Source of the DNA: Roseovarius sp.
Lineage (GTDB): Bacteria > Pseudomonadota > Alphaproteobacteria > Rhodobacterales > Rhodobacteraceae
Reading direction: 5' to 3'
NCBI GenBank assembly: GCA_043555235.1
Contig: CP121311.1
Location: 1,128,857 to 1,192,856, forward strand
DNA length: 64,000 nucleotides
A program made the translations under genes and the position numbers. How positions within the stretch are numbered: position 1 is the first letter of the stretch; each line of letters opens with the position of its first letter. Below, piece by piece: positions 4,487 to 16,007 of the stretch. The notes under the pieces were generated by a model. It was not told the DNA's origin. It made no database searches and saw only the letters and a list, made by a program, of their open reading frames with translations.

Positions 4487-5004
4487 CAGCCGCGCGCCAT
4501 TTCGCGTTTGAGCTTTTGCATCCGGCGCGTGATCAGTTGGCGCTTCATGGGCCCCAGATATTCGATAAAAAGCTTGCCGTTAAGGTGGTCAATCTCGTGC
4601 TGCACGCAGGTCGCCCAGAGCCCGTCGAAGGTCTGGGCGTGTTCCTCGCCGTCAAGGCCAAGCCAGCGCACATCCACCGCGCTCGGCCGGGTGACATCCG
4701 CGAATTGATCGGGGATCGACAGGCAACCTTCCTCGTAGACGTTCTTTTCGTCAGACGCGGCCACGATCTCGGGATTGAACAGCACCATCGGGCGGGCCGG
4801 TTCGCCGTCATCCTTGGCGCAATCCATTACGATCAGCCGGTTCATGTCACCCACCTGCGGGGCCGCAAGCCCGATGCCGGGCGCGTCATACATGGTTTCC
4901 AGCATATCCTCGGCCAATGCGCGCAACTCGTCGCTCAGATCCGCGACAGGGTCGCAGGCCTTTTTGAGACGTGGGTCGGGGTGGATCAGAATGGGCCGCT
5001 TCAT
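4486..5004 (-). CDS. def: Peptide deformylase
   Basis: GIGLAAPQVG, EEGCLSIP, QHEIDHLNG all intact. Confidence 0.97.
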   Translation of the reverse strand: MKRPILIHPDPRLKKACDPVADLSDELRALAEDMLETMYDAPGIGLAAPQVGDMNRLIVMDCAKDDGEPARPMVLFNPEIVAASDEKNVYEEGCLSIPDQFADVTRPSAVDVRWLGLDGEEHAQTFDGLWATCVQHEIDHLNGKLFIEYLGPMKRQLITRRMQKLKREMARG

Positions 5005-5102
5005 GAGCGTTCATTTAGGCGATCGCCCGGCGCGGCGCAACGCCCTTGCGCCCGTCTCTCTTTCGGTTAGCTTTCGTGCCGACACACAACCGGAGACCCA
5101 CC

Positions 5103-6290
5103 ATGACGATCCATCCCGATTTCGATACCCCGATCGAGCGCCGTGGCACCCGCAGTGTCAAATGGGACGCCATGCAGGCGGCGCAGGGCGTCGATGCCGG
5201 GGACGGGATCGCGATGTGGGTGGCGGATATGGATTTCGCCGCCGCCGATGTGCTGCAAGAGGCCACAAAGGCGCTGATCGAAAAGGCCAATTATGGCTAT
5301 TTCACCGGCGAGACCGAGATGAAAGACGCCGTCGCCTGGTGGATGGAAACGCGGCATGGCTGGCGGGCCGATCCGGCGCATATGGTCTCGACCGCCGGTC
5401 TGGGCAACGCCATCGCCATCTGCCTGCAAACCTATACCGATCCGGGCGATGAGGTGATCATCTTTACCCCCGTCTATCACGAGTTCACCAACAAGATCGT
5501 CAATGCCGACCGCAAGGTAAAGGAAAGCCCGCTTGTCATTGGCGAGGACGGGACATACCGCATGGATCTAGATGCGCTCGAAGCGGCGATGACCGGGCGG
5601 GAAAGACTGCTCCTTTTTTGTTCGCCGCACAATCCCGCGGGCCGCATCTGGACCATCGCAGAGCAACAGGCCGTCGCGCGCTTTTGCGCGCGCCATGACC
5701 TGATCCTTGTCTCGGACGAGATTCACCACGATCTGGTCTATCCCGGCAAGATCCATGTCCCGATGCCCGTCGCCGCCCCCGACAGCGTCGAGCGGCTGGT
5801 CATGCTCACCTCGTCCTCCAAGACGTTCAACACCGCCGGTTCCCGCCTTGGCACCGTCACGATCCCGGGCGCAGATCTGCGTAAACGCTTTGGTAAGCAG
5901 CTTAACGCACTGAACTTGCAGTCAAACCTTTTGGGTTGTGAACTGACCCGCGCCGCCTACAGCCCACGCGGCGCGATCTGGGTGGATCAACTCGTGGCGT
6001 ATCTCGACGGTAATCGCGCGGCGTTTCTTAAGGCCATGAACCAGATACCGGGCCTTCAGCCGATGCCGATGCAAGCCACCTATCTGGCATGGATCGACTT
6101 CAGCAACACGGGCATGGACATGTCAGAGGTGCTGCACCGCGTCAAATCCGACGCCCGCATCGCACCCTCTGTCGGGGCGGAATTCGGCACCGGGGGGGAA
6201 ACCTGCCTGCGCTTCAATTTCGCCATGCCGCGCGCCAGGCTGGATACAGCCATCGAACGGCTGCAAGCCGCGTTCCGCGACCTGCAATAG
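5103..6290 (+). CDS. MalY/PatB-family PLP enzyme (cystathionine beta-lyase-like)
   Basis: MWVADMDF, CSPHNPAGRIW, SDEIHHDL, SSSKTFN (PLP Lys). Confidence 0.92.
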   Translation: MTIHPDFDTPIERRGTRSVKWDAMQAAQGVDAGDGIAMWVADMDFAAADVLQEATKALIEKANYGYFTGETEMKDAVAWWMETRHGWRADPAHMVSTAGLGNAIAICLQTYTDPGDEVIIFTPVYHEFTNKIVNADRKVKESPLVIGEDGTYRMDLDALEAAMTGRERLLLFCSPHNPAGRIWTIAEQQAVARFCARHDLILVSDEIHHDLVYPGKIHVPMPVAAPDSVERLVMLTSSSKTFNTAGSRLGTVTIPGADLRKRFGKQLNALNLQSNLLGCELTRAAYSPRGAIWVDQLVAYLDGNRAAFLKAMNQIPGLQPMPMQATYLAWIDFSNTGMDMSEVLHRVKSDARIAPSVGAEFGTGGETCLRFNFAMPRARLDTAIERLQAAFRDLQ

Positions 6291-6339
6291 AGGCGGGCGC
6301 GTGCTCGGTTCGGCCTGTATGCTCGCCCTGTCCGTTTCG

Positions 6340-7110
6340 TCAATCCGCGTGCCCCTTGGGGCGCAGCACATGAGGTTTCGCGGCATCGTATAGCGCGCTT
6401 TCGGTAATATCCCCGATCTCACCCAGAACCGGCCCCACCATGATCAGCGCCGTGCGCGTGATCTTGGCCTCACGCACCTTTTCACGAATATCCGCGAGCG
6501 TGCCGCGCAGGAAAATCTGGTCAGGCCAGCCCACGCGATAGGCGACCACCACGGGGCAGTCAGCCCCGTAATGCGGCACCAGCACGCGCTCGATCTCGCG
6601 CAACGCCCGAATGCCCAGATGAATGGCCAGCGTGGTGCCGGTGCGTGCGAAATTCTCCAGCGTCTCGCCCACGGGCATCGAAGTGGACTTCATCGACATC
6701 CGTGTCAGCACGATGGATTGCGCCACCTCCGGCACGGTCAGTTCCTGACCCAGGGCCGCGGCGGCGGCGGCATAGGCGGGCACGCCCGGCACGATCTTGT
6801 AGGGGATACCCTCCGCGCGCAGCCGCCGGATCTGCTCGGCGATGGCCCCGTAAAGCGATGGATCGCCCGAATGCACCCGCGCCACGTCCGCATCGCGCGC
6901 GTGGGCCGCAACGATCTCGGCATGGGTCTCGTCCAGCGTCATCGACGCGGTATCGCGCACCAATGCGCCCTCGGGGGCCATTGCGACCACCTCCGCCGGT
7001 ACAAGGCTGCCAGCATAAAGACAAACCGGGCAGGCCCCAATCAGCCGCGCGGCCTTCAGCGTCAGTAGCTCCGGATCGCCCGGCCCCGCCCCGATGAAAT
7101 AAACCGTCAT
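6340..7110 (-). CDS. cobM: Precorrin-4 C11-methyltransferase
   Basis: MTVYFIGAGPGDPELLT, RVHSGDPSLYGA, VAQSIVLTR. Confidence 0.95.
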   Translation of the reverse strand: MTVYFIGAGPGDPELLTLKAARLIGACPVCLYAGSLVPAEVVAMAPEGALVRDTASMTLDETHAEIVAAHARDADVARVHSGDPSLYGAIAEQIRRLRAEGIPYKIVPGVPAYAAAAAALGQELTVPEVAQSIVLTRMSMKSTSMPVGETLENFARTGTTLAIHLGIRALREIERVLVPHYGADCPVVVAYRVGWPDQIFLRGTLADIREKVREAKITRTALIMVGPVLGEIGDITESALYDAAKPHVLRPKGHAD

Positions 7111-7226
7111 GCCGTAGCCCTCCATGGCCCTGTATTCCCGAAAGCGCCCGACCGATCCGCGCCAGCACCCTGCGGGACGGCGGGCGGGGCGATTTTGCGC
7201 CTCGCGCAAAAAGCGCCGCCCGTCAT
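7107..7226 (-). other. 39-aa mini-ORF spanning the cobJ-cobM spacer; contains hairpin TTTTGCGC-CTC-GCGCAAAA (7193-7211)
   Basis: ATG overlaps cobJ TGA and its TGA overlaps cobM ATG; ATGACGG at both ends; translation unproven. Confidence 0.45.
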
Positions 7227-9019
7227 CCCAGCCCCCCGGCCAGATCACCGTCGATCTTGCGCGCATAGCCGCGTGGCGTGAACATGCGTGGCCCCTCGCC
7301 CAGTTGGGCAAGCCGGGTATTACTCGACCCCACCAGCACGACGGTCAGCATGTCCACCTCGTCCACCTCCAGCGCATCAAGTCGCCGATAGCGGACCTGT
7401 TCCTCGGGGCGGCCCAGGTTGCTGGCCAGCATCACCGGCGTCTCCGCCGGACGGTGCCGCAACAGGATCTCGCGCGCCTCCGCCAGAAGGGTCCGGCGCG
7501 TCTTGCTCACCGGGTTGTAAAAGGCGATCACAAAATCCCCCTCGGCCGCCGCCTGCAACCGGCGCAGGATATCGGCGCGCGGCGTCAGCAGGTCGCTCAG
7601 CGATATGGTGCAAAAATCATGCCCCAAAGGCGCGCCCGCCCGCGCCGCCGCGCCCTGCAAGGCACTCACGCCAGGGCTGCACACCACCTCGGCGCGGCGC
7701 GCGGCGTCGCTCACGCCCTGCGCCTCGGGGGCACGGTCCAGCAGCTCGAACACAAGCGCCCCCATCGCGTAAATCCCCGCATCGCCCGAACATATGAGCG
7801 CCACGTTGCGCCCCTCTGCCGCCCGCTCCAGCGCATAGCGGCACCGCGCCTCCTCGCCGCCAAGCGGGAAATCGCTGCGCGTCTTACCCGCCGCCAGCGG
7901 CCCCAGAAGATCTATATACAGCCCGTATCCCACAAGTTCCTCGGCCTCGGCGACCAACCGGCTCACCTCGGGTGTGCGCCAACTGGACTGGCCAGGGCCA
8001 ATGCCCACCACGCTCAGCCGCCCGCGCGCCCGTCCCGGCATCTCCACCAGTGGTGCCGCACAGCGGCCCAGCGCGCAGGTTGCATTCGCCGTCTTGCGCT
8101 TCTCCACCACCAGCGCCGCGCCAGAGGCCAGAACCGCGCCCTCTGCCACGCCATGGCAGCCAACCTCGGCGAAAACCACCTCGGACGGGTTGGCCAGCCC
8201 GCCCGACTGCGCCTCAAGTTCGGCGGCCGTGAACAGCCGCAAAGGCACGCCAAGCCGCGCCGCCACCGCGCTCATCGCCGCCTCATCCGCCTTGAGGTCG
8301 ATGCTGGCGACACAAGCCACCGCACCCGGTGCGATTCCGGCCTCCTCCAGGGTCGCCAGAACCAATGCCCAAAGCTCCTCCGGATCGGCATCGCGCGCGC
8401 AACCCACACCAAGGACATGCCGCTGCGGATGATAGACAAGCCGCAACGGCCCTGTTTCCGTCGGGGCCTCGCTCACGACAAGCTCCACCGCGCCGCCAGT
8501 CGCCTCGACCCCGAAAACATTCTCACCGGTCACCGTCAGGCCCTGCCCCGCCAAAAGCGCCGCCATCGCCGCCTTGGCATCGTCCGGGTTGGCCAGCCTG
8601 AAGCCCTCGGGCGGCGTATCCAGCGCCACCCCCATCGCCACATCACCCGCCGTCGTCACCGCCGCAACCGCATCCAGCGCCCCGGCGATCCGCGCCGCCA
8701 GCCGATTGGCACCACGATGCCCGCCCAGAAGCGGCACCACCACCGAGCCGTCATCGCTGACAGACACCACCGGCGGCTCGGCGCGCTTGTCACTGAGAAG
8801 CGGGGCCACGGCGCGGATCAGAATGCCGCTGGCGCAGACCCCCACCACCGGGATGCCCGCCGCGAACAGATCGCGCGCATGATCCAGCGCATTGGCGAAA
8901 AACGCATCGGCCCGTGCGACACGCCCCTCGCGCCCATGCACGGGGGCGCCAAGACAGGCAGCCACACGATGCGCAACGGCCTCTCCCGACCGGCTTAGCG
9001 CCAGAACAACGGGTGTCAT
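7223..9019 (-). CDS. cobJ: CbiG/CobE-CobJ fusion (precorrin-3B C17-methyltransferase with N-terminal CbiG domains)
   Basis: N-terminal GGHRGAN, VITT-like AVTTAGD and LGVGC CbiG motifs; C-terminal VVGIGPG, SGDAGIYAM, HDFCTISLSD, FYNP; alternative start at 9025. Confidence 0.93.
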   Translation of the reverse strand: MTPVVLALSRSGEAVAHRVAACLGAPVHGREGRVARADAFFANALDHARDLFAAGIPVVGVCASGILIRAVAPLLSDKRAEPPVVSVSDDGSVVVPLLGGHRGANRLAARIAGALDAVAAVTTAGDVAMGVALDTPPEGFRLANPDDAKAAMAALLAGQGLTVTGENVFGVEATGGAVELVVSEAPTETGPLRLVYHPQRHVLGVGCARDADPEELWALVLATLEEAGIAPGAVACVASIDLKADEAAMSAVAARLGVPLRLFTAAELEAQSGGLANPSEVVFAEVGCHGVAEGAVLASGAALVVEKRKTANATCALGRCAAPLVEMPGRARGRLSVVGIGPGQSSWRTPEVSRLVAEAEELVGYGLYIDLLGPLAAGKTRSDFPLGGEEARCRYALERAAEGRNVALICSGDAGIYAMGALVFELLDRAPEAQGVSDAARRAEVVCSPGVSALQGAAARAGAPLGHDFCTISLSDLLTPRADILRRLQAAAEGDFVIAFYNPVSKTRRTLLAEAREILLRHRPAETPVMLASNLGRPEEQVRYRRLDALEVDEVDMLTVVLVGSSNTRLAQLGEGPRMFTPRGYARKIDGDLAGGLG

Positions 9020-9717
9020 AGCCATGGATCGGCCCCTTTCGTCAAAAGTATCATGGAGAAATAAGGCGCACGTTCAGGTGCCTCCGCCAGTGGCAGAACG
9101 ACCTCTTCAGGCAGGCTGGCGCGCTCGACATAGACCGCCCCGCCGGTCAGGCCCAGATCTTCGATCACGCCCCGTATCTTGGCCAGATGCCGCCCCACTT
9201 TCATGATCGCCACCGCTTCGGCACCCTCGATTCGCCGCCGCAATTCATCTTCGGGCAAAGGGCCGGGCAGCACGGTCAGCCGCTCGTTGCGCGCCACAAG
9301 CGGGCGCCCCGCGCGCGCGGCACAGGCCGCGATGGAGGTGACACCCGGCACCACCTCGATCTCAAACCGCGCTGACAGCCGCGCAAAAAGATACATGAAA
9401 GAGCCGTAAAAGAACGGATCGCCCTCACAGAGACAGATCACATCCTCACCTTGCTCCAGCACCCCGGCGATTTCTTCGGCCCCTTTGTCATAGGCCGCCT
9501 GCGCGGGCGCGCGCGCCGTCGTCATCGGCACATCCATCACGATCTCGCGCGCACCGGGCGCAATCGCGTCCGCCGCGATGGATCGTGCAAAACTTTGCGC
9601 CCCGGCCAGCGTCGGATAAGCAACCACCCCGGCCCCGGCAATCAACCGATGCGCCCGCAAGGTCATCAACTCCGGGTCGCCCGGCCCCAGCCCCACACCG
9701 TACAGCTTGCCCCTCAT
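9016..9717 (-). CDS. cobI: Precorrin-2 C20-methyltransferase
   Basis: MRGKLYGVGLGPGDPELMT, CEGDPFFYGSF, VVPGVTS. Confidence 0.95.
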   Translation of the reverse strand: MRGKLYGVGLGPGDPELMTLRAHRLIAGAGVVAYPTLAGAQSFARSIAADAIAPGAREIVMDVPMTTARAPAQAAYDKGAEEIAGVLEQGEDVICLCEGDPFFYGSFMYLFARLSARFEIEVVPGVTSIAACAARAGRPLVARNERLTVLPGPLPEDELRRRIEGAEAVAIMKVGRHLAKIRGVIEDLGLTGGAVYVERASLPEEVVLPLAEAPERAPYFSMILLTKGADPWL

Positions 9718-9791
9718 GCCCGTCCCCCGGCTTCTTCTTGGCAAAAATACTTGAATCGGACAGCCCAAATGTGGCCCACACGCCCGCTCAT
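9714..9791 (-). other. 25-aa mini-ORF spanning the cobL-cobI spacer (MSGRVGHIWAVRFKYFCQEEAGGRA)
   Basis: ATGA overlaps at both ends; contains repeat core CTTCTTCTTGGCA (9731-9743); translation unproven. Confidence 0.45.
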
Positions 9792-10990
9792 CGCTTCACC
9801 AGGCTCAACTGCGTGACCGGCATCAACGGTCGCCATCCGGTCAAACCGCCCACGGGCTCGGCGCGGTGGACCTGCAACTTCACCAATTGCCCGCCATGCC
9901 GCTTGTGCAGGTCCATCAGTACCGCCTCGCTTTCCAGCGTCACGGCATTGGCCACCAGCCGCCCCAACGGGCGCAACGCGGCCCAGGCGGCCTCGAATAC
10001 CGGCACGCTCAGCCCACCCCCGATAAAGACCGCGTCCGGCGATGCCAGACCGTGCAACGCCTCGGGCACCCGCCCGTCGATCAGCTCCAGCTTCGGCGCA
10101 CCCAGCGACAACGCGTTCCGGGCGGCCATGGCGCGGCGGTCGTCGCGCGGCTCGATCCCTATGGCGCGGGCATAGCGCGCGGCACGCATCCATTCCACCG
10201 CGACAGAGCCGCAACCGGTGCCGATATCCCACAGCAACGCGCCACGCATCGGCATCAGCTTGGCCAGCGTGGCGGCGCGAACCTCCTGCTTGGTCATCGT
10301 GCCGTCATGCACGAACAAGTCATCGGACAGCCCCGGCACGCGGGGCAAAAGCGCGGCGTCAGGTGCCGCGACACACTCCACCGCAAGCGTGTTGAAGGCT
10401 GGCACATCCTGATCCCAGCCATTGGCGATCCCGTCAAAGCGTGCCTCGTCCTGGCCGCCCATCGCCGCCAGAACGCTCATCTTCGATGCGCCGAATCCGC
10501 GCTCTGTCAGGAAGCGCGCGATCTGTCCCGGCGTCTCGGCCCCCGTGGTCAGAATCAAAAGCCGCGCATCGGGCTGAATAAAGGCGATCATCTGCTCCAC
10601 CGGGCGGCCATGCACGGTGAGCGTTTCCACATCCGCGATGCTCCAGCCCATGCGCGCGGAGGCCAGCTGAAACGCAGAAAGTTGCGGGTGATAGACGATC
10701 TCGGCAGGGTTCACGCTGCGCCCGATCCGCGCGCCCACGGAAAACCAGAGCGGATCGCCAGTGGCCAGAACCACCACCCGCTGGCCCCGGCAGGACATCA
10801 GCGTGTCGATGAGCGCATCAAAAGGGCTGGGCCAGGCGACCCGCTTGGCGCGGACCGTGTCCGACAGTCGATGATGCCGGTCCCCGCCGATGATAATCTC
10901 GGCCGCCTCGACCACGGCGCGCGTGGCGGGTAAAAGCCCCGCCATGCCATCCTCGCCGATCCCGACGATATGCAACCAAGGCTCAGCCAT
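9788..10990 (-). CDS. cobL: Precorrin-6Y C5,15-methyltransferase, decarboxylating (CbiE/CbiT fusion)
   Basis: MAEPWLHIVGIGEDG, ATGDPLWFSVG, TKQEVRA, WDIGTGCGSV, DAVFIGGG. Confidence 0.95.
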   Translation of the reverse strand: MAEPWLHIVGIGEDGMAGLLPATRAVVEAAEIIIGGDRHHRLSDTVRAKRVAWPSPFDALIDTLMSCRGQRVVVLATGDPLWFSVGARIGRSVNPAEIVYHPQLSAFQLASARMGWSIADVETLTVHGRPVEQMIAFIQPDARLLILTTGAETPGQIARFLTERGFGASKMSVLAAMGGQDEARFDGIANGWDQDVPAFNTLAVECVAAPDAALLPRVPGLSDDLFVHDGTMTKQEVRAATLAKLMPMRGALLWDIGTGCGSVAVEWMRAARYARAIGIEPRDDRRAMAARNALSLGAPKLELIDGRVPEALHGLASPDAVFIGGGLSVPVFEAAWAALRPLGRLVANAVTLESEAVLMDLHKRHGGQLVKLQVHRAEPVGGLTGWRPLMPVTQLSLVKR

Positions 10991-11054
10991 GCGCGCCACC
11001 AAAACTTTTCGAAAAAGTTTTGCCAAATTTTTTCATAAAAAATTTGCCCCTCAT
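10983..11054 (-). other. 23-aa mini-ORF spanning the cobH-cobL spacer (MRGKFFMKKFGKTFSKSFGGAHG)
   Basis: ATG overlaps cobH TGA; its TGA lies in cobL codons 2-3 (ATGGCTGA); translation unproven. Confidence 0.4.
11000..11046. repeat. AT-rich double perfect hairpin
   Basis: CAAAACTTTT-CGA-AAAAGTTTTG, one C, then CAAATTTTTT-CAT-AAAAAATTTG: two 10-bp stems with 3-nt loops. Confidence 0.9.
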
Positions 11055-11689
11055 ACCCGGCCCTCCGGAATGCCCGCCGCCAGCGCGTTGACCGCAGCCG
11101 AGGCCATGGCCGACCCACCCCGCCGCCCGCGCAGCGCCACAAATTCACAGCCGCGCGGGTTCTCGGCCAGTTCGGCCTTGCTCTCGGCGGCGCCGACAAA
11201 CCCCACCGGAAAGCCAAGGATCACGGCAGGTTTCGGCGCGCCGGCATCAAGCAGTTCCAGGAGATGAAAAAGCGCGGTAGGCGCATTGCCGATGGCAACG
11301 ACCGCACCGGCCAGATGCGGCGTCCACAGCTCGACCCCGGCGGCGCTGCGGGTATTGCCGATCCGCTGTGCCAGCCCAGGCACCTGCGGGTCGTTGAGCG
11401 TGACGATCACCTCGTTGTCGCTGGGCAGGTAACGCCGGATGATGCCCGCCCCCACCATTTCGCAATCGCAAAGGACCGGCGCGCCGTTCTGTAAAGCCGC
11501 CTGTCCAGCCGCGTGGGCGTTATCGGAATAGGACAGCCGGTCCGCGACCTCGACCATGCCGCAAGCATGGATGAGCCGGATGGCCAGGGCCTCCATGCCG
11601 GGGGCAAAGCGATCCAGCCGGGCTTCGCGCCGGACGGTCGCGAAGCTTTCGGCGTAGATCGCGGATGGGTTTTTCTCATAGGGGCGCAA
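11051..11689 (-). CDS. cobH: Precorrin-8X methylmutase
   Basis: RLIHACG, IGNTRSAA, AIGNAPTALF, GFPVGFVGAAESK, GGSAMASAAVNA; TTG start. Confidence 0.96.
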   Translation of the reverse strand: MRPYEKNPSAIYAESFATVRREARLDRFAPGMEALAIRLIHACGMVEVADRLSYSDNAHAAGQAALQNGAPVLCDCEMVGAGIIRRYLPSDNEVIVTLNDPQVPGLAQRIGNTRSAAGVELWTPHLAGAVVAIGNAPTALFHLLELLDAGAPKPAVILGFPVGFVGAAESKAELAENPRGCEFVALRGRRGGSAMASAAVNALAAGIPEGRV

Positions 11690-11761
11690 TGATCCGACCT
11701 TGTTCCTAGACCCGGCGGCGGATGCCTCAGGCGGGAGAATTCTGCCAAGAAGAAGGACGGG

Positions 11762-12973
11762 TCACGCCTTGGTCTTGCGCGCGCTTTCAGGCCCCAGCGG
11801 ATGTTTGGCATGGGGGTAGATCGCATGATGGTGGTGATGGTCATGATCGTGATGCGCGTGATCGTGGCCATGATGATGATGGTGGTGACGCTTGTCCGTC
11901 GCCTCCAGCCGGCAAAGCCCGGTGCAGAACGTATCGCAAAGGGAACAATCCGCCACGTTCGAGCCCGGCGCCGAGGCGCCCTGCCCCTCGACATGGTGAT
12001 GGTGGCTTTCCTGTATCGCGCCGACCTCGTGCTCGAAGCCCAGGACCGCCGTGCGGTATTTGCACAACACGCAGGTTGGCGGCGGCACGTCGCCGAACGC
12101 CGGGTGGGCGGTACGCGCCGCGGCGGGGATCTCTATGGGTTTGCCCCCTTCGACGGCCAGAACCTGTGCACGATAAGGGCAGGTGCCGCAATTGGGAGGC
12201 GGGTTCGCGCCTGCCTGTTCGCGCACACGTTCCGCAAAGGTTTCCAGCACCTTGGGGTGGTCGCCCAGATAGCCCGCCTTCACAAACTCGATGTCGGGAT
12301 GCGCGGCGGCGACCTGATCGGTGAAGCCATAGATCCGGTCGATCAGGATGCCCGAGAAAAGGAAATAAGGGAATACGACGATGCGCTTGTAGCCCAGCTT
12401 CGCCACATGGCTCAGGCACGGCTCCACCAGCGGGAAGGTCACGCCGGAATAGCCGACCGCGCCCCAGCCAAAGCCCATGCCCTCCCACAGCATACGGGCG
12501 ATCTTGGCGACATTGCCGTTGGCATCGGGATCAGAGGCGCCGCGCCCAATCACGACGAGGCAAGTGTCATGCAGCGACACGGCGCCCTGTTCGGCATTGG
12601 CCTGCGCCACGGCGGCCTCGATCCGCGCACCGGCGGCGGCGATCATCTTGGGATCGACGCCAAGTTCCCGGCCATAGCTGATCTCGATCCCGTGGGTTTC
12701 GGCATAGGTGTTCAGCACGGTGGGGATGTCGTTCTTGGAATGCATCGCCGCGAACAGCATACCGGGCACGGCGAGAATGCGCTCGCAACCCTTTTCGCGC
12801 AGCTTGTCCAGACCATCGCGGATGACCGGGTTGGCAAATTCCAGATAGCCGTATTCCATTTCCCATTCGGGCGGCAGGTAGGCGGGCAGCTTGTCGGCGA
12901 GGGTGGAAAACTCATCCACCGCCGCCTGGCTGCGCGAGCCGTGCCCGCAGATCATCACGCCGGTCTTGGTCAT
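11762..12973 (-). CDS. cbiX: Sirohydrochlorin cobaltochelatase CbiX with Cys motifs and His-rich tail
   Basis: MICGHGSRS, GYLEFANP, GRGASDPDAN, FPYFLFSG; C-terminal poly-His. Confidence 0.92.
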   Translation of the reverse strand: MTKTGVMICGHGSRSQAAVDEFSTLADKLPAYLPPEWEMEYGYLEFANPVIRDGLDKLREKGCERILAVPGMLFAAMHSKNDIPTVLNTYAETHGIEISYGRELGVDPKMIAAAGARIEAAVAQANAEQGAVSLHDTCLVVIGRGASDPDANGNVAKIARMLWEGMGFGWGAVGYSGVTFPLVEPCLSHVAKLGYKRIVVFPYFLFSGILIDRIYGFTDQVAAAHPDIEFVKAGYLGDHPKVLETFAERVREQAGANPPPNCGTCPYRAQVLAVEGGKPIEIPAAARTAHPAFGDVPPPTCVLCKYRTAVLGFEHEVGAIQESHHHHVEGQGASAPGSNVADCSLCDTFCTGLCRLEATDKRHHHHHHGHDHAHHDHDHHHHHAIYPHAKHPLGPESARKTKA

Positions 12974-12977
12974 GGAC

Positions 12978-13196
12978 TCAGGCCTCCTGGGCTTCTTCTT
13001 CGGTCTCGTCTTCGGGGGCTGTGTCGGCCTCGGCCTCCTTGCGGGCGCGCGCCCGCGCCCACAGGCCGATGGCAATGGCCGCACCAATGGCCGCAGCGCC
13101 GAGCCAGTGGCCGTGACCGGCCGCTTCGGCCAGATGTCCGGGATGTGCAACGGCGGCACCGGGCAGCATCGCGGCAGTGATCAGGATCAGTCTCAT
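12978..13196 (-). CDS. Small membrane protein with AHPGH motif (DUF6732-like)
   Basis: Signal-like N-terminus, HPGH..GHGH, TM helix, acidic tail; GGAAAGGA SD upstream; first gene of cob cluster. Confidence 0.75.
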   Translation of the reverse strand: MRLILITAAMLPGAAVAHPGHLAEAAGHGHWLGAAAIGAAIAIGLWARARARKEAEADTAPEDETEEEAQEA

Positions 13197-13490
13197 GTGG
13201 CGTTCCTTTCCTGTCAGACCCGTTCAGACAGCCGGAAGGGAAGGCCGCCTGCGGCCATCGCCCGACGATCCAGATCCACGCGGCCCCCTGTTTGGGTCGG
13301 CCCGGCGATCTGCACCTTTCCGGCCCCTGTCAGGGGGCATCGTCACCGCGTCTATATGCGCAGCGCGGCATCTGCGCAAACGGAGAATCGCCACACCGCA
13401 TCGCGATTGCGACATGTGCGCGGGCGCACAGACCCCGCGCCTTGGAACCGCGCCGAGCCGCGTCAGGTTGATGGCCAAAGGAGAATTATC

Positions 13491-14474
13491 ATGGGCCAAC
13501 TGATCGACGGCGTCTGGCATGACGACTGGTACGACACCGAAAGCACAGCCGGCGAATTCAAGCGCACCACAACGCAGTTTCGCAACTGGATCACCGCCAA
13601 TGGCGCGCCCGGCCCGTCGGGGGCGGGTGGGTTCGCCGCACAAAGCGGGCGCTATCATCTTTACGTTTCGCTCGCCTGTCCGTGGGCGCACCGCACCCTG
13701 ATTTTCCGCAAGCTCAAGGCGCTGGAGGACCACATCGGCGTGTCCGTGGTGCATCCCGACATGCTAAGCGACGGGTGGACCTTTGACACGGATTTTCCGG
13801 GTGCGACGGGGGACAGGGTGTATGGCTTGCCGTTTGCCCGTGACATCTATCTGCGGGCCGACCCGAAGACATCGGGGCGCGTGACGGTGCCGATCCTGTG
13901 GGACAAGGAACGCGAAACCATCGTGTCCAACGAATCTGCCGAGATCATTCGCATGTTCAACAGCGCCTTTGATGCGATCACCGGCAATACCGACGATTAC
14001 TGGCCCAAAGATCTGCGCGCCGCGATCGAGCCGGTGAACGCCCGCATCTACGACACCGTCAACAACGGGGTCTACAAGGCCGGGTTCGCGACCAGTCAAC
14101 CGGCCTATGACAAGGCCGTTAATCCGGTATTCGAGACGCTGGGCTGGCTTGAGGCGCGCCTGCGCTATCACCGCTACCTGATGGGCGCGCGCCTGACAGA
14201 GGCGGACTGGCGGCTGTTCACCACGCTGATCCGCTTTGACATGGTCTATCACGGGCATTTCAAATGCAACCGCGCACGAATCGTGGATTACCCCAATATC
14301 TGGGGCTATCTGCGCGAGCTTTACCAATGGCCGGGCGTGGCGGAGACGGTGGATTTCGACCATATCACGCGCCACTACCATTACAGCCATGACATGATAA
14401 ATCCGCACCGTATCATCCCGACAGGCCCGGATCTGGATCTGGACGCAGCACATGGGCGCGATCATCTTGGGTGA
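13491..14474 (+). CDS. Glutathionyl-hydroquinone reductase (GST omega-like, YqjG family)
   Basis: GRYHLYVSLACPWAHR, VTVPILWD, NESAEI, NNGVYKAGFA; AAGGAG SD. Confidence 0.93.
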   Translation: MGQLIDGVWHDDWYDTESTAGEFKRTTTQFRNWITANGAPGPSGAGGFAAQSGRYHLYVSLACPWAHRTLIFRKLKALEDHIGVSVVHPDMLSDGWTFDTDFPGATGDRVYGLPFARDIYLRADPKTSGRVTVPILWDKERETIVSNESAEIIRMFNSAFDAITGNTDDYWPKDLRAAIEPVNARIYDTVNNGVYKAGFATSQPAYDKAVNPVFETLGWLEARLRYHRYLMGARLTEADWRLFTTLIRFDMVYHGHFKCNRARIVDYPNIWGYLRELYQWPGVAETVDFDHITRHYHYSHDMINPHRIIPTGPDLDLDAAHGRDHLG

Positions 14475-14491
14475 CGCGTAGCGCGATGATG

Positions 14492-14536
14492 AAAGCGGTT
14501 CGCGAAAAACCTGACGCGCAGCGTTTCGCGAACCGC
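14492..14536. repeat. Half-copy (one terminal hairpin) of the MITE family, between convergent genes
   Basis: GCGGTTCGCGAAAAACCTGA...TTTCGCGAACCGC, a 42-nt hairpin the same length as the one at 2454-2495. Confidence 0.7.
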
Positions 14537-14537
14537 C

Positions 14538-15005
14538 TCATTCCACGATGAAACGGCCTCGTGCCTGTTTTGGCGGCTCGGCATGGTCGCGCACCAGAAA
14601 CGGGTAATCGCCCTTGCGCATGGGATGAAAGCTGAACCGCGCAGACCCCTTGCCATCGCATTGGATCGCCCGAAAGCTTAGTCCCTGCACGTAGAATTCC
14701 ATGTCGCTTTCGGCGACAGACAGAACCCGAAGATGGGCGTTTTCCAGCAGCCCGGGGGATTCGAAATGAAATCCGGTGTCGGACGTCACCTCCTGCGGGC
14801 AGGTCACGTTGAGCCGGTAATAGCCGCCAAGCGCCAGCCGGAAGTCGGTTTGCGAGATCGCGACAGCGCCGTCGGCATCGCGGGTCATTTCAAGATGGAT
14901 GTCTTCGGGCTTGCCCCCGCCCAGCTGGCCCGAGACCTGTTCGTCGGCCAGGGTGGGCATAGCCATAAGGGCGGTGATCCCCATAAGTGCGCGTATCAGC
15001 TTCAT
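14538..15005 (-). CDS. Secreted hypothetical protein, possibly cupredoxin-like fold
   Basis: Signal peptide MKLIRALMGITALMAMPTLA; GGYYRL and FSFHPMRKGDYPF beta-rich patterns. Confidence 0.7.
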   Translation of the reverse strand: MKLIRALMGITALMAMPTLADEQVSGQLGGGKPEDIHLEMTRDADGAVAISQTDFRLALGGYYRLNVTCPQEVTSDTGFHFESPGLLENAHLRVLSVAESDMEFYVQGLSFRAIQCDGKGSARFSFHPMRKGDYPFLVRDHAEPPKQARGRFIVE

Positions 15006-15433
15006 GCCGTGTTCTCCTGCTTTCGGTCCTTGGGTGTGGCGCGATAATCCGCGTCCGACACCTGTTCCAGCCAGTCGGCAACGCGCCCGGCTGCGTCGGC
15101 CTCCTGCATGGCCAGATGGCACATCTGCGTTTTCGGCGCAGCGCCGTGCCAGTGCTCTTCACCCGGCGGAATCCAGACCGTATCGCCCGCGCGGATCACC
15201 TCGGGGGCCTGTCCGCGCCGCGCGACAAGCCCGGTGCCCCACAACACATACAGCGTCTGGCCCAACGGATGGGTGTGCCAAGCCGTGCGCGCGCCCGGCT
15301 CGAACGTCACGCGGAGCGCGCGCAGCCGTGCGGGGGCTTCGGCCTCGACCACCGGCTCTTGCCATACACGACCGCTAAAGTAGTCCGGATTGGCGAGGCT
15401 GCTGGCCCGCGTTTCAGACCTGAAAATCCGCAT
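15002..15433 (-). CDS. Cupin domain protein
   Basis: VTFEPGARTAWHTHPLGQTL, WIPPGEEHWHGA. Confidence 0.92.
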   Translation of the reverse strand: MRIFRSETRASSLANPDYFSGRVWQEPVVEAEAPARLRALRVTFEPGARTAWHTHPLGQTLYVLWGTGLVARRGQAPEVIRAGDTVWIPPGEEHWHGAAPKTQMCHLAMQEADAAGRVADWLEQVSDADYRATPKDRKQENTA

Positions 15434-15535
15434 TGCGCTTCTCCTTGCATAATATCGCGTCCTGTCGACACGGGGTGACCGGAGTCAGCCTGAACGACCC
15501 GGTCTTGTACACCGGTCTTTTCGCGCCCGAATCCC

Positions 15536-15564
15536 TTGACGCCCCAGAGCATTGGCCGTAAAGA
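15536..15564 (+). promoter_or_regulatory. Probable sigma70 promoter of rpmB
   Basis: TTGACG-N17-TAAAGA. Confidence 0.5.
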
Positions 15565-15656
15565 CCGAAAACGGATTTCGGGGCACGGCCTATGGCGGTG
15601 CCCGTTTGCATTGAGAGGGGACAGACCGCGCCCCACCCAGGACGAGGAATGAACCT

Positions 15657-15947
15657 ATGTCGCGCCGCTGCGAATTGACCGGAAAAGGCCCGATGGTCGG
15701 GAACAACTCGAGCCACGCCAACAATAAAACCAAGCGTCGGTATCTGCCGAACCTGAACGATGTGACACTTCAGTCGGAAACGCTCAAGCGTGGTATCAAG
15801 CTGCGCATCAGCGCCGCTGCCCTGCGCTCTGTCGATCACCGGGGCGGGCTGGACGGATATCTGGCCAAGGCCAAGGATATCGAGCTTTCCGCCAACGCGC
15901 TGAAAGTGAAGAAAGAGATTGCAAAGGCACAGGCCGCAAGCGCCTGA
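15657..15947 (+). CDS. rpmB: 50S ribosomal protein L28
   Basis: [33 protein letters not shown]. Confidence 0.98.
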
Positions 15948-15971
15948 CTTGCCCGATCCTGCAAAGCTGAC

Positions 15972-16007
15972 ACAGCCTCGCCAGATCCGGCGGGGCTGTT
16001 GCTTTTT
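15972..16007 (+). terminator. Intrinsic terminator after rpmB
   Basis: ACAGCCTCGCC-loop-GGCGGGGCTGT followed by TGCTTTTT. Confidence 0.75.

Follow-up and report, generated by a model that had tools for sequence, protein, structure and literature searches.

How does an operon whose genes are joined by overlapping stop and start codons accommodate repeats inserted at exactly those joints? The question is raised by the cob operon, which holds genes of vitamin-B12 synthesis and lies on the minus strand of a 64,000-nt stretch of DNA, referred to here as the window, from Roseovarius sp. (assembly GCA_043555235.1, contig CP121311.1, positions 1,128,857 to 1,192,856, designated G000:C1:1128857-1192856 in the genome set compared here), the genome of which is a single contig of 3.50 Mb with 61% GC. 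Three spacers of this operon, between cobH and cobL (J1), cobL and cobI (J2), and cobJ and cobM (J3), are filled with repeat or hairpin DNA, and each is crossed by a mini-open reading frame (mini-ORF) that opens on the upstream stop codon. The anatomy of these junctions, their ancestral empty state and four signatures of selection on the frame are established here. The pattern makes it reasonably likely that the mini-ORFs are relay frames that are translated and maintained by selection, and the frames are probably kept open so that ribosomes can pass from one gene to the next.

Mini-ORFs at former stop/start overlaps

The three mini-ORFs, all on the minus strand, lie at the coordinates given for them in an earlier reading of the window made from the letters alone (the sequence-only reading). 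The J1 mini-ORF (10983..11054) has 23 codons and reads MRGKFFMKKFGKTFSKSFGGAHG before its stop; the J2 mini-ORF (9714..9791) has 25 codons (MSGRVGHIWAVRFKYFCQEEAGGRA) and the J3 mini-ORF (7107..7226) has 39 codons (MTGGAFCARRKIAPPAVPQGAGADRSGAFGNTGPWRATA), the latter two running from ATGA to ATGA. In each case, the opening ATG overlaps the upstream TGA. The cobH gene (11051..11689, minus strand; precorrin-8X methylmutase, NCBIfam NF006136, E=8e-96) ends in GTA TGA, its stop being overlapped by the ATG at 11054-11052, while cobL (9788..10990, minus strand; a CbiE+CbiT fusion, TIGR02467 + TIGR02469) ends in CGA TGA and the cbiG-cobJ fusion (7223..9025, minus strand; TIGR01466 + CbiG models) in GGA TGA. 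At the other end, J2 and J3 terminate on the TGA of the downstream ATGA, that is, at the starts of cobI (9016..9717, minus strand; precorrin-2 C20-methyltransferase, TIGR01467, E=5e-65) and cobM (6340..7110, minus strand; precorrin-4 C11-methyltransferase, TIGR01465, E=9e-91). The TGA of J1 sits 5 nt inside cobL (ATGGCTGA) and is supplied by cobL codons 2-3, GCT GAG. The earlier description of frames that begin on the upstream stop and finish on the downstream start is thus accurate for all three at their beginning and for J2 and J3 at their end, whereas J1 overshoots. At both ends of each mini-ORF, the stop and the next start lie within a few nucleotides of one another, and the J1 layout is repeated in 10/10 filled spacers of the same genus (36-72 nt).

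Sites resembling Shine-Dalgarno (SD) sequences accompany these starts. GGAGG at 11066-11062 lies 7 nt upstream of the J1 ATG and GGTGA precedes the J2 ATG; GGGGGA (9728-9723, minus strand) stands 5 nt before the cobI ATG, and a GGAGG Shine-Dalgarno site (7119..7123, minus strand), located within the J3 mini-ORF, 8 nt before the cobM ATG. Both on the minus strand, the J1 mini-ORF (11054-11044) and cobI (9717-9707) open with the same 11 nt (ATGAGGGGCAA); this identity is not found at J1 of relatives and could reflect coincidence, gene conversion or a trace of the origin of the insert.

The presence of repeat or hairpin DNA in all three spacers, as claimed by the sequence-only reading, is confirmed, and the inserts belong to different families. 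J1 contains two tandem 24-nt AT-rich hairpin units (10999..11048, minus strand, stems 11046-11024 and 11022-11000), a class named R3. J2 carries the tail of a repeat named R1 (GTATTTTTGCCAAGAAGAAG, 9731..9750, minus strand), and a homologous tail is found at the same junction in many genera. J3 carries a stable hairpin (7181..7222, minus strand, free energy, dG, -27.8 kcal/mol), which begins 1 nt after the relic ATGA, followed by the C-rich motif CGCCCCGCCCGCCGTCCCG (~7173-7192, minus strand) of a module named R2.

The ancestral state of the junctions was read from the cobH-cobM loci of 13 genomes of the same genus, 4 more distant genomes and 80 further genomes, which were mostly Roseobacteraceae (Planktotalea, Roseovarius, Thalassovita, Yoonia, Aliiroseovarius, Loktanella) with some Rhizobiales; locus L102 of this comparison is that of Roseovarius salinarum. 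The order of the cob genes is conserved across the compared loci. Direct -4 (ATGA) overlaps are the commonest state, occurring at cobL-cobI in 59/94 loci, at cobJ-cobM in 45/95 and at cobH-cobL in 42/94, and they are also present at cob junctions in outgroup families. For these reasons the filled sites are insertions into ATGA overlaps, and the comparison of spacers with those of relatives bears out the earlier proposal of insertion at ATGA junctions, the empty sites being direct ATGA overlaps at all three.

The sequence-only reading had also proposed that the insertions duplicated their target. The left edges of J2 (ATGAGCGG[G/C]) and J3 (ATGACGG) do match the opening 7-9 nt of the gene that follows. 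The J2 left edge, ATGAGCGGG, resembles both the cobI start, ATGAGGGGC, and the empty-site sequence, ATGAGCGGC, and ATGACGG is found at both ends of J3, with ATGACGGT as the matching empty-site sequence. The repeated stretches are TGAC[G/A]GTT in locus L041 and ATGAG[C/G]GG[G/C] at J2. Some of the matching letters in each case follow from the need for an ATGA itself, so that the edge repeats stand as observations, and a target duplication of up to 9 bp at J2 and J3 is suggestive only.

The fourth junction, cobI-cobJ, had been taken for a plain ATGA overlap. Its reading in relatives leads to a different assignment: the cobI/cbiG-cobJ overlap is 10 nt (ATGGCTATGA), and the start of cobJ that is conserved among relatives is the ATG 10 nt before the cobI stop (ATGGCTnTnA). 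An ATGA is also present at this junction of the present genome by happenstance.

Signatures of selection on the frame

The frame that starts on the upstream stop was followed through 89 filled spacers of the compared loci, which were reduced to 77 clusters at 80% similarity. Bridging depends on the codon over the upstream stop. With ATG in this position, 44/50 spacers are bridged, 3 extend in frame into the gene and 3 are closed, while bridges are found in 6/11 spacers with GTG, 3/5 with TTG and 2/11 with no start codon. The relay frame of the ATG class contains 3 stops in 1046 codons, compared with 34/1092 in the second frame and 21/1080 in the third. Dinucleotide shuffles yield 22.4 +/- 4.8 stops in the relay frame (minimum 12 in 200 shuffles), a depletion of about sevenfold that is confined to this frame; spacers without a start codon, with 9 stops in 250 relay-frame codons, display no depletion. 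The ATG-class spacer lengths are distributed over the three classes modulo 3 as 34 / 12 / 4, and the relay frame terminates on the ATGA 33 times and at +5 or +8 ten times.

Shuffles at fixed spacer length lead to an expectation of 29/50 bridged ATG-class spacers, giving a Poisson-binomial P = 6e-9, which is optimistic, as are the other P values, because the spacers are related by descent and clustering removes this dependence only partly. A stricter clustering at 65% retains 30/36 bridged clusters. The clustering (difflib) was relied on at 0.8 and 0.65; thresholds of 0.55 and below merge unrelated DNA and are not meaningful.

Where the frame misses the ATGA, the downstream gene contains an out-of-frame stop at an offset of no more than 11 in 15/23 loci, compared with 26/252 other loci (odds ratio, OR, 16, p = 7e-9). 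The compensating stop in cobL takes the form xCT GAx or xCT AAx at +5 (10/10), and that in cobI the form GGT AAG or GGT AGG at +8 (5/6). The relic ATG is kept by rare codons: of the 32 loci with a filled cobL-cobI site, 28 have CGA or AGA as the final codon of cobL, and in 31 this codon ends in A, against a genome background in which CGA and AGA together account for 5.5% of Arg codons and A for 9% of third positions. The relic ATG is conserved against codon bias.

These signatures have to be weighed against a neutral account, in which a relic ATG followed by stop-poor, GC-rich and intrinsically stop-free repeats would generate open frames as a by-product, to be inherited by relatives. The account has a factual basis, as the 20-nt R1 core is, by our own reading of its sequence, stop-free in all six frames, the fixed-length shuffles are already bridged in ~58% of cases, and the chance rate in the genome (see below) is appreciable. 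Nevertheless, it does not predict a stop depletion that is limited to the relay frame and disappears where the start codon has been lost, nor the retention of rare A-ending last codons, nor early stops that co-vary with the frame. Spacer lengths, moreover, shift between lineages, yet the frame stays usable. A purely neutral origin is accordingly judged improbable.

The peptide itself appears to be of no consequence. No peptide conservation was found in the mini-ORFs, and the R1 repeat is read in at least 2 frames. At one and the same junction, spacer length ranges from 16 to 162 nt and mini-ORF length from 7 to 39 codons or more. The idea that the mini-ORFs encode functional micropeptides draws some encouragement from other ORFs of this genome that are coupled at both ends and look like real small membrane proteins, among them one of 44 codons at 930562 (minus). 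Given the lack of any peptide conservation, the changing frame of the same repeat and the variable length, a micropeptide function is rejected for the cob mini-ORFs and is assigned an almost vanishing probability. The 44-codon ORF lies outside the window, in a 130-nt minus-strand spacer starting at genome position 930562, and is coupled ATGA to ATGA. The peptide it encodes is hydrophobic and transmembrane-like (MKAMLTAFVAIAFISVGAWYALTHLGF...), and probably represents a genuine small protein that lacks annotation, which indicates that not every doubly coupled mini-ORF is filler.

A genome-wide test of the frame in repeat-bearing spacers had been proposed by the sequence-only reading, and its outcome is positive. 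The counts were based on the analysis's own gene caller (2948 genes), the start sites of which are imperfect. Among 866 tandem spacers of 12-150 nt in this genome, an arbitrary frame bridges 11-18% (per spacer and frame), a bridge being counted when the stop falls within 12 nt of the downstream start. From this measured rate, the probability that three of three spacers are bridged by chance, given a start codon, is ~0.005; the earlier figure of 1 in 27 did not represent a proper null. Bridges are found behind 28/84 upstream ends of the ATGA type, 24/92 of the GTGA type and 57/313 of the CTGA type, the last being bridged at chance level only, and behind 93/592 of all ends without a start codon (ATGA vs ends without start codon, p = 2e-4). 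In gaps of >100 nt, the bridged fractions are 8/20 for ATGA and 13/152 without a start codon (p = 6e-4). When only the 87 spacers that contain an R1 copy or a perfect 8-bp hairpin are counted, they are 8/10 for ATGA, 4/11 for GTGA and 6/63 without a start codon (OR 12.7, p = 2e-5). The share of ATGA among TGA ends is 14.3% before a tandem spacer and 8.9% at convergent ends.

An R1 tail is also found in an independent operon, between ureA and ureB, where it is bridged from GTGA to ATGA in the present genome and from TTGA to ATGA in G012, and read in frame in G019. The loci used for this comparison were those ending in KLVTVHxPIR followed by the stop, together with a manual reading of the present genome (G000).

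Proposed ribosome hand-over and competing explanations

On the proposed explanation, the ancestral cob operon would have possessed ATGA overlaps at cobH-cobL, cobL-cobI and cobJ-cobM, and short repeats (the R1 tail, AT-rich hairpin units and the R2 hairpin element) would have been inserted exactly at these overlaps. Such an insertion would leave the old start codon on the upstream stop, with its SD site intact inside the upstream gene. Ribosomes finishing the upstream gene, or binding the old ribosome-binding site, could then restart at the relic ATG, since a ribosome terminating at the TGA would already be positioned on the overlapping ATG. Translation would cross the insert and melt its hairpins, and termination on, or within ~10 nt of, the real downstream start would lead to re-initiation, aided by the new SD-like site in the spacer. 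The targets of selection would be the relic ATG, the stop-free frame, the length class of the spacer and a stop beside the downstream start, rather than the peptide. That the frame is translated, that its benefit lies in translational coupling and that the hairpins are unwound is what we infer from the compared sequences.

An open frame could, on the other hand, serve as ribosome cover rather than delivery: translating ribosomes would block Rho loading (polarity), RNase attack or hairpin formation, while the downstream genes would use their own SD sites. Such sites precede cobI and cobM by 5-8 nt, the depletion of stops and the retention of the ATG are equally compatible with this account, and an unbridged junction of the same operon, described in the next paragraph, indicates that independent initiation works there. 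Cover alone would not require the stop of the mini-ORF to lie as close to the start as it does in the 33 spacers with a stop on the ATGA and the 10 with a stop at +5 or +8. The compensating early stops in cobL and cobI, likewise, are expected for termination-reinitiation and needless for cover. On the basis of this tight stop placement and the compensating stops, hand-over is favoured, and mere cover is considered unlikely, although it is the alternative to be taken most seriously.

Several observations weigh against a relay of ribosomes across the inserts. Apart from the imperfect start sites and the shared descent already mentioned, downstream genes with SD-like sites of their own could initiate independently. 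The cbiX-cobH spacer (11690..11761, minus strand) contains an R1 tail in reverse orientation behind an upstream GTGA, and the GTGA frame stops 40 nt before the cobH start without forming a bridge. The same insert is kept across genera, where the upstream end is mostly CTGA and bridges occur in ~2/20, about the chance level. Since cbiX-cobH tolerates R1 unbridged, a relay is unnecessary for the operon to work. The sequence-only reading went too far in suggesting that inserts are retained only when ribosomes can relay across them, as this repeat persists across genera without a start codon or a bridge. Invaded junctions appear to settle into either a relay state or independent initiation, and the cbiX-cobH junction constitutes a built-in negative control.

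The J3 hairpin raises a further objection, as its position 1 nt after the relic ATGA could mark it as an insulating post-stop structure. According to one proposal (RTS, PMC7518266), stable structures located immediately behind stop codons govern re-initiation, and the hairpins might be RTS or transcript-processing or stability elements that insulate the cistrons from one another, the open frames being irrelevant. The stability and position of the J3 hairpin are in keeping with such a role, as is the location of full R1 elements, mostly downstream of gene ends. J2, however, has no significant structure (z = 0.23) and the J1 hairpins are weak, and insulation leaves the frame-specific stop depletion, the ATG retention and the stop covariation unexplained. 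This explanation is therefore held to be very improbable, more so than the neutral one, and the ribosome relay remains the preferred reading.

Inserted repeats and related systems

The inserted DNA is heterogeneous. The J1 tandem has a period of 24 and 2.1 copies (Tandem Repeats Finder, TRF), and its two hairpins fold with dG values of -4.9 and -7.2 kcal/mol. One or two hairpins are present at J1 of relatives, in spacers of 39, 60 and 72 nt; J2 and J3 are not tandem. AT-rich perfect hairpins of the R3 type are over-represented about 10-fold in the genome (52 vs 5 in a shuffle), and 49 are intergenic. These palindromes measure 22-24 nt, with stems of at least 8 bp, and often form arrays of 2-4 different units in tandem spacers; the arrays include those at genome positions 2534492-2534547 and 3423983-3424060. 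Two R3 arrays in tandem spacers (gaps of 130 and 139 nt, downstream of gene ends at 2946837 and 2132135) are bridged from GTGA to the next start.

The R1 family comprises ~40 genomic copies, against 12 control hits, and J2 contains only its 3' tail. The full element is 90-100 bp long, with the consensus GGGGCGCTGCCCCTC..GTTGAAATT..AATTTCAAC..CCCCGAGGTATTTTTGGCCAGATGAAG, in which GGGGCGCTGCCCCTC is a GC hairpin, GTTGAAATT..AATTTCAAC an AT-rich one and CCCCGAGGTATTTTTGGCCAGATGAAG the tail. Most full copies begin just after the stop codon of a gene, in many cases where two genes converge. Tails of 20-35 nt are also found in isolation, repeatedly and immediately behind ATGA, at the cob and ure junctions of many genera, which suggests that the R1 tail moves or survives by itself.

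The R2 module, a hairpin followed by CGCCCCRCCCGCCRTCCCG, recurs in the cob spacers of loci L044, L041, L056, L071, L064 and L082, and the inner stem of the J3 hairpin varies among relatives with compensating changes, as judged by eye. In the present genome, R2 produces few partial hits only. A scan of positions 5000-16000 against Rfam at E <= 1 matched no curated RNA family, and no terminal inverted repeats, as expected of a MITE (a miniature inverted-repeat transposable element), were seen around any of the three inserts. A link to the MITE at 2450-2565 was ruled out, its sequence being unrelated. The derivation of J3 from a DUF6882 gene was likewise ruled out, as the J3 spacer is homologous to R2 hairpin spacers instead. 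In four relatives of the same genus (L032, L036, L037 and L042), a 176-aa DUF6882 gene (Pfam, E=1e-28) lies between cobJ and cobM, in a gap of 523 nt and with ATGA overlaps at both ends, so that this junction has accepted a real gene too.

An identical 72-nt spacer with the start of its downstream gene (ATGGAAAGCGTG) exists in at least 4 copies, at window position ~62880 (genome 1191736) and at genome positions 253227, 1413602 and 3042460, and these are probably copies of a multi-copy insertion sequence. The minus-strand operon as a whole has the order cbiX-cobH-cobL-cobI-cbiG/cobJ-cobM, each gene being assigned by NCBIfam or Pfam models. The cbiX gene (11762-12973, minus strand, Pfam PF01903) encodes a long CbiX with a poly-His tail. 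Just upstream of it (window 12978-13196, minus strand) lies a gene whose 72-aa DUF6732 product combines a transmembrane segment with a His-rich region. A small His-rich membrane ORF, similar by eye, is located between ureA and ureB in some relatives (L136) and terminates at the ATGA of ureB; this may be an accessory peptide involved in metal handling.

The principle of such an arrangement is already known from mycobacterial interspersed repetitive units (MIRUs), the nearest precedent, and is not new. MIRUs are repeats between the cistrons of mycobacterial operons, and their proposed role is to maintain translation of the gene that follows (Supply et al. 1997, as summarised in PMC12548453 and PMC3184786), and the ends of the MIRU ORF overlap the adjacent genes (PMC3184786). 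As in the cob operon, short repeats are found at start codons, and the ORF overlaps the upstream stop and the downstream start; in J1, the length of the tandem unit (24 nt) is a multiple of 3. The features shared with MIRU-type insertions include co-oriented operon genes, a stop/start overlap at the empty site and a dispersed repeat family (R1, AT-rich hairpins). The likeness is one of arrangement, drawn from descriptions, and sequence homology is not expected given the different phylum and three unrelated inserts. The cob junctions differ in that they occur in Alphaproteobacteria (Roseobacteraceae) and involve at least 3 unrelated inserts, of which only J1 is a tandem array. Whereas the MIRU ORF is a fixed ORF in one element, the ORF here belongs to the junction and is composed of a relic start and any open frame of the insert. 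In addition, selection has been quantified here over ~100 genomes, with an unbridged contrast in the same operon.

Termination-reinitiation at NTGA overlaps (Huber et al. 2019, PMC6728339; PMC12548453) represents the same unit of coupling, which would here be used twice in series. The known cases join two real genes, whereas in the cob operon a non-coding filler ORF would form the intermediate link. Short upstream ORFs that deliver ribosomes, as in synthetic bicistronic designs (PMC12548453, PMC13255528), work in the way proposed here; they start de novo in the 5' leader, in contrast to an ORF that is coupled to the upstream gene and born by insertion into an overlap. In Salmonella, translation of a small ORF between mgtC and mgtB is reported to open the structure that surrounds the ribosome-binding site further downstream (PMC8092293). 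Its role is regulatory, its translation is abortive, and the title and abstract do not describe it as insert-derived or coupled to the upstream stop. A literature search found no paper on relay ORFs across repeat insertions in Rhodobacterales.

Annotation pipelines ignore frames of 20-40 codons such as these, and operon spacers are usually treated as untranslated. The cob operon offers a natural experiment, in which one operon in ~100 genomes has received many independent inserts. It indicates that strong purifying selection can act on a frame without a functional peptide, preserving the start codon, the open state of the frame and the place where it ends, and it serves as a warning against assuming a functional peptide behind every conserved small ORF in a spacer. 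The relay would also explain the persistence of rare A-ending codons at some gene ends. Comparative support is thereby provided for a hand-over of ribosomes, an idea that has so far been put forward chiefly for MIRUs and exploited in synthetic bicistronic designs.

More tentatively, and with the chances leaning against it, the NTGA overlaps of Roseobacteraceae may be preferred landing sites for several unrelated small repeats, possibly through a 9-bp duplication that regenerates ATGA on both sides. An invaded junction would then have two stable states, one in which a relay ORF is kept, with its start codon, open frame and stop by the real start, and one in which the relic start is lost and the downstream gene is initiated independently. 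If this is true, relay ORFs would be a general rule by which operons survive the invasion of their junctions, well beyond the MIRUs of mycobacteria.

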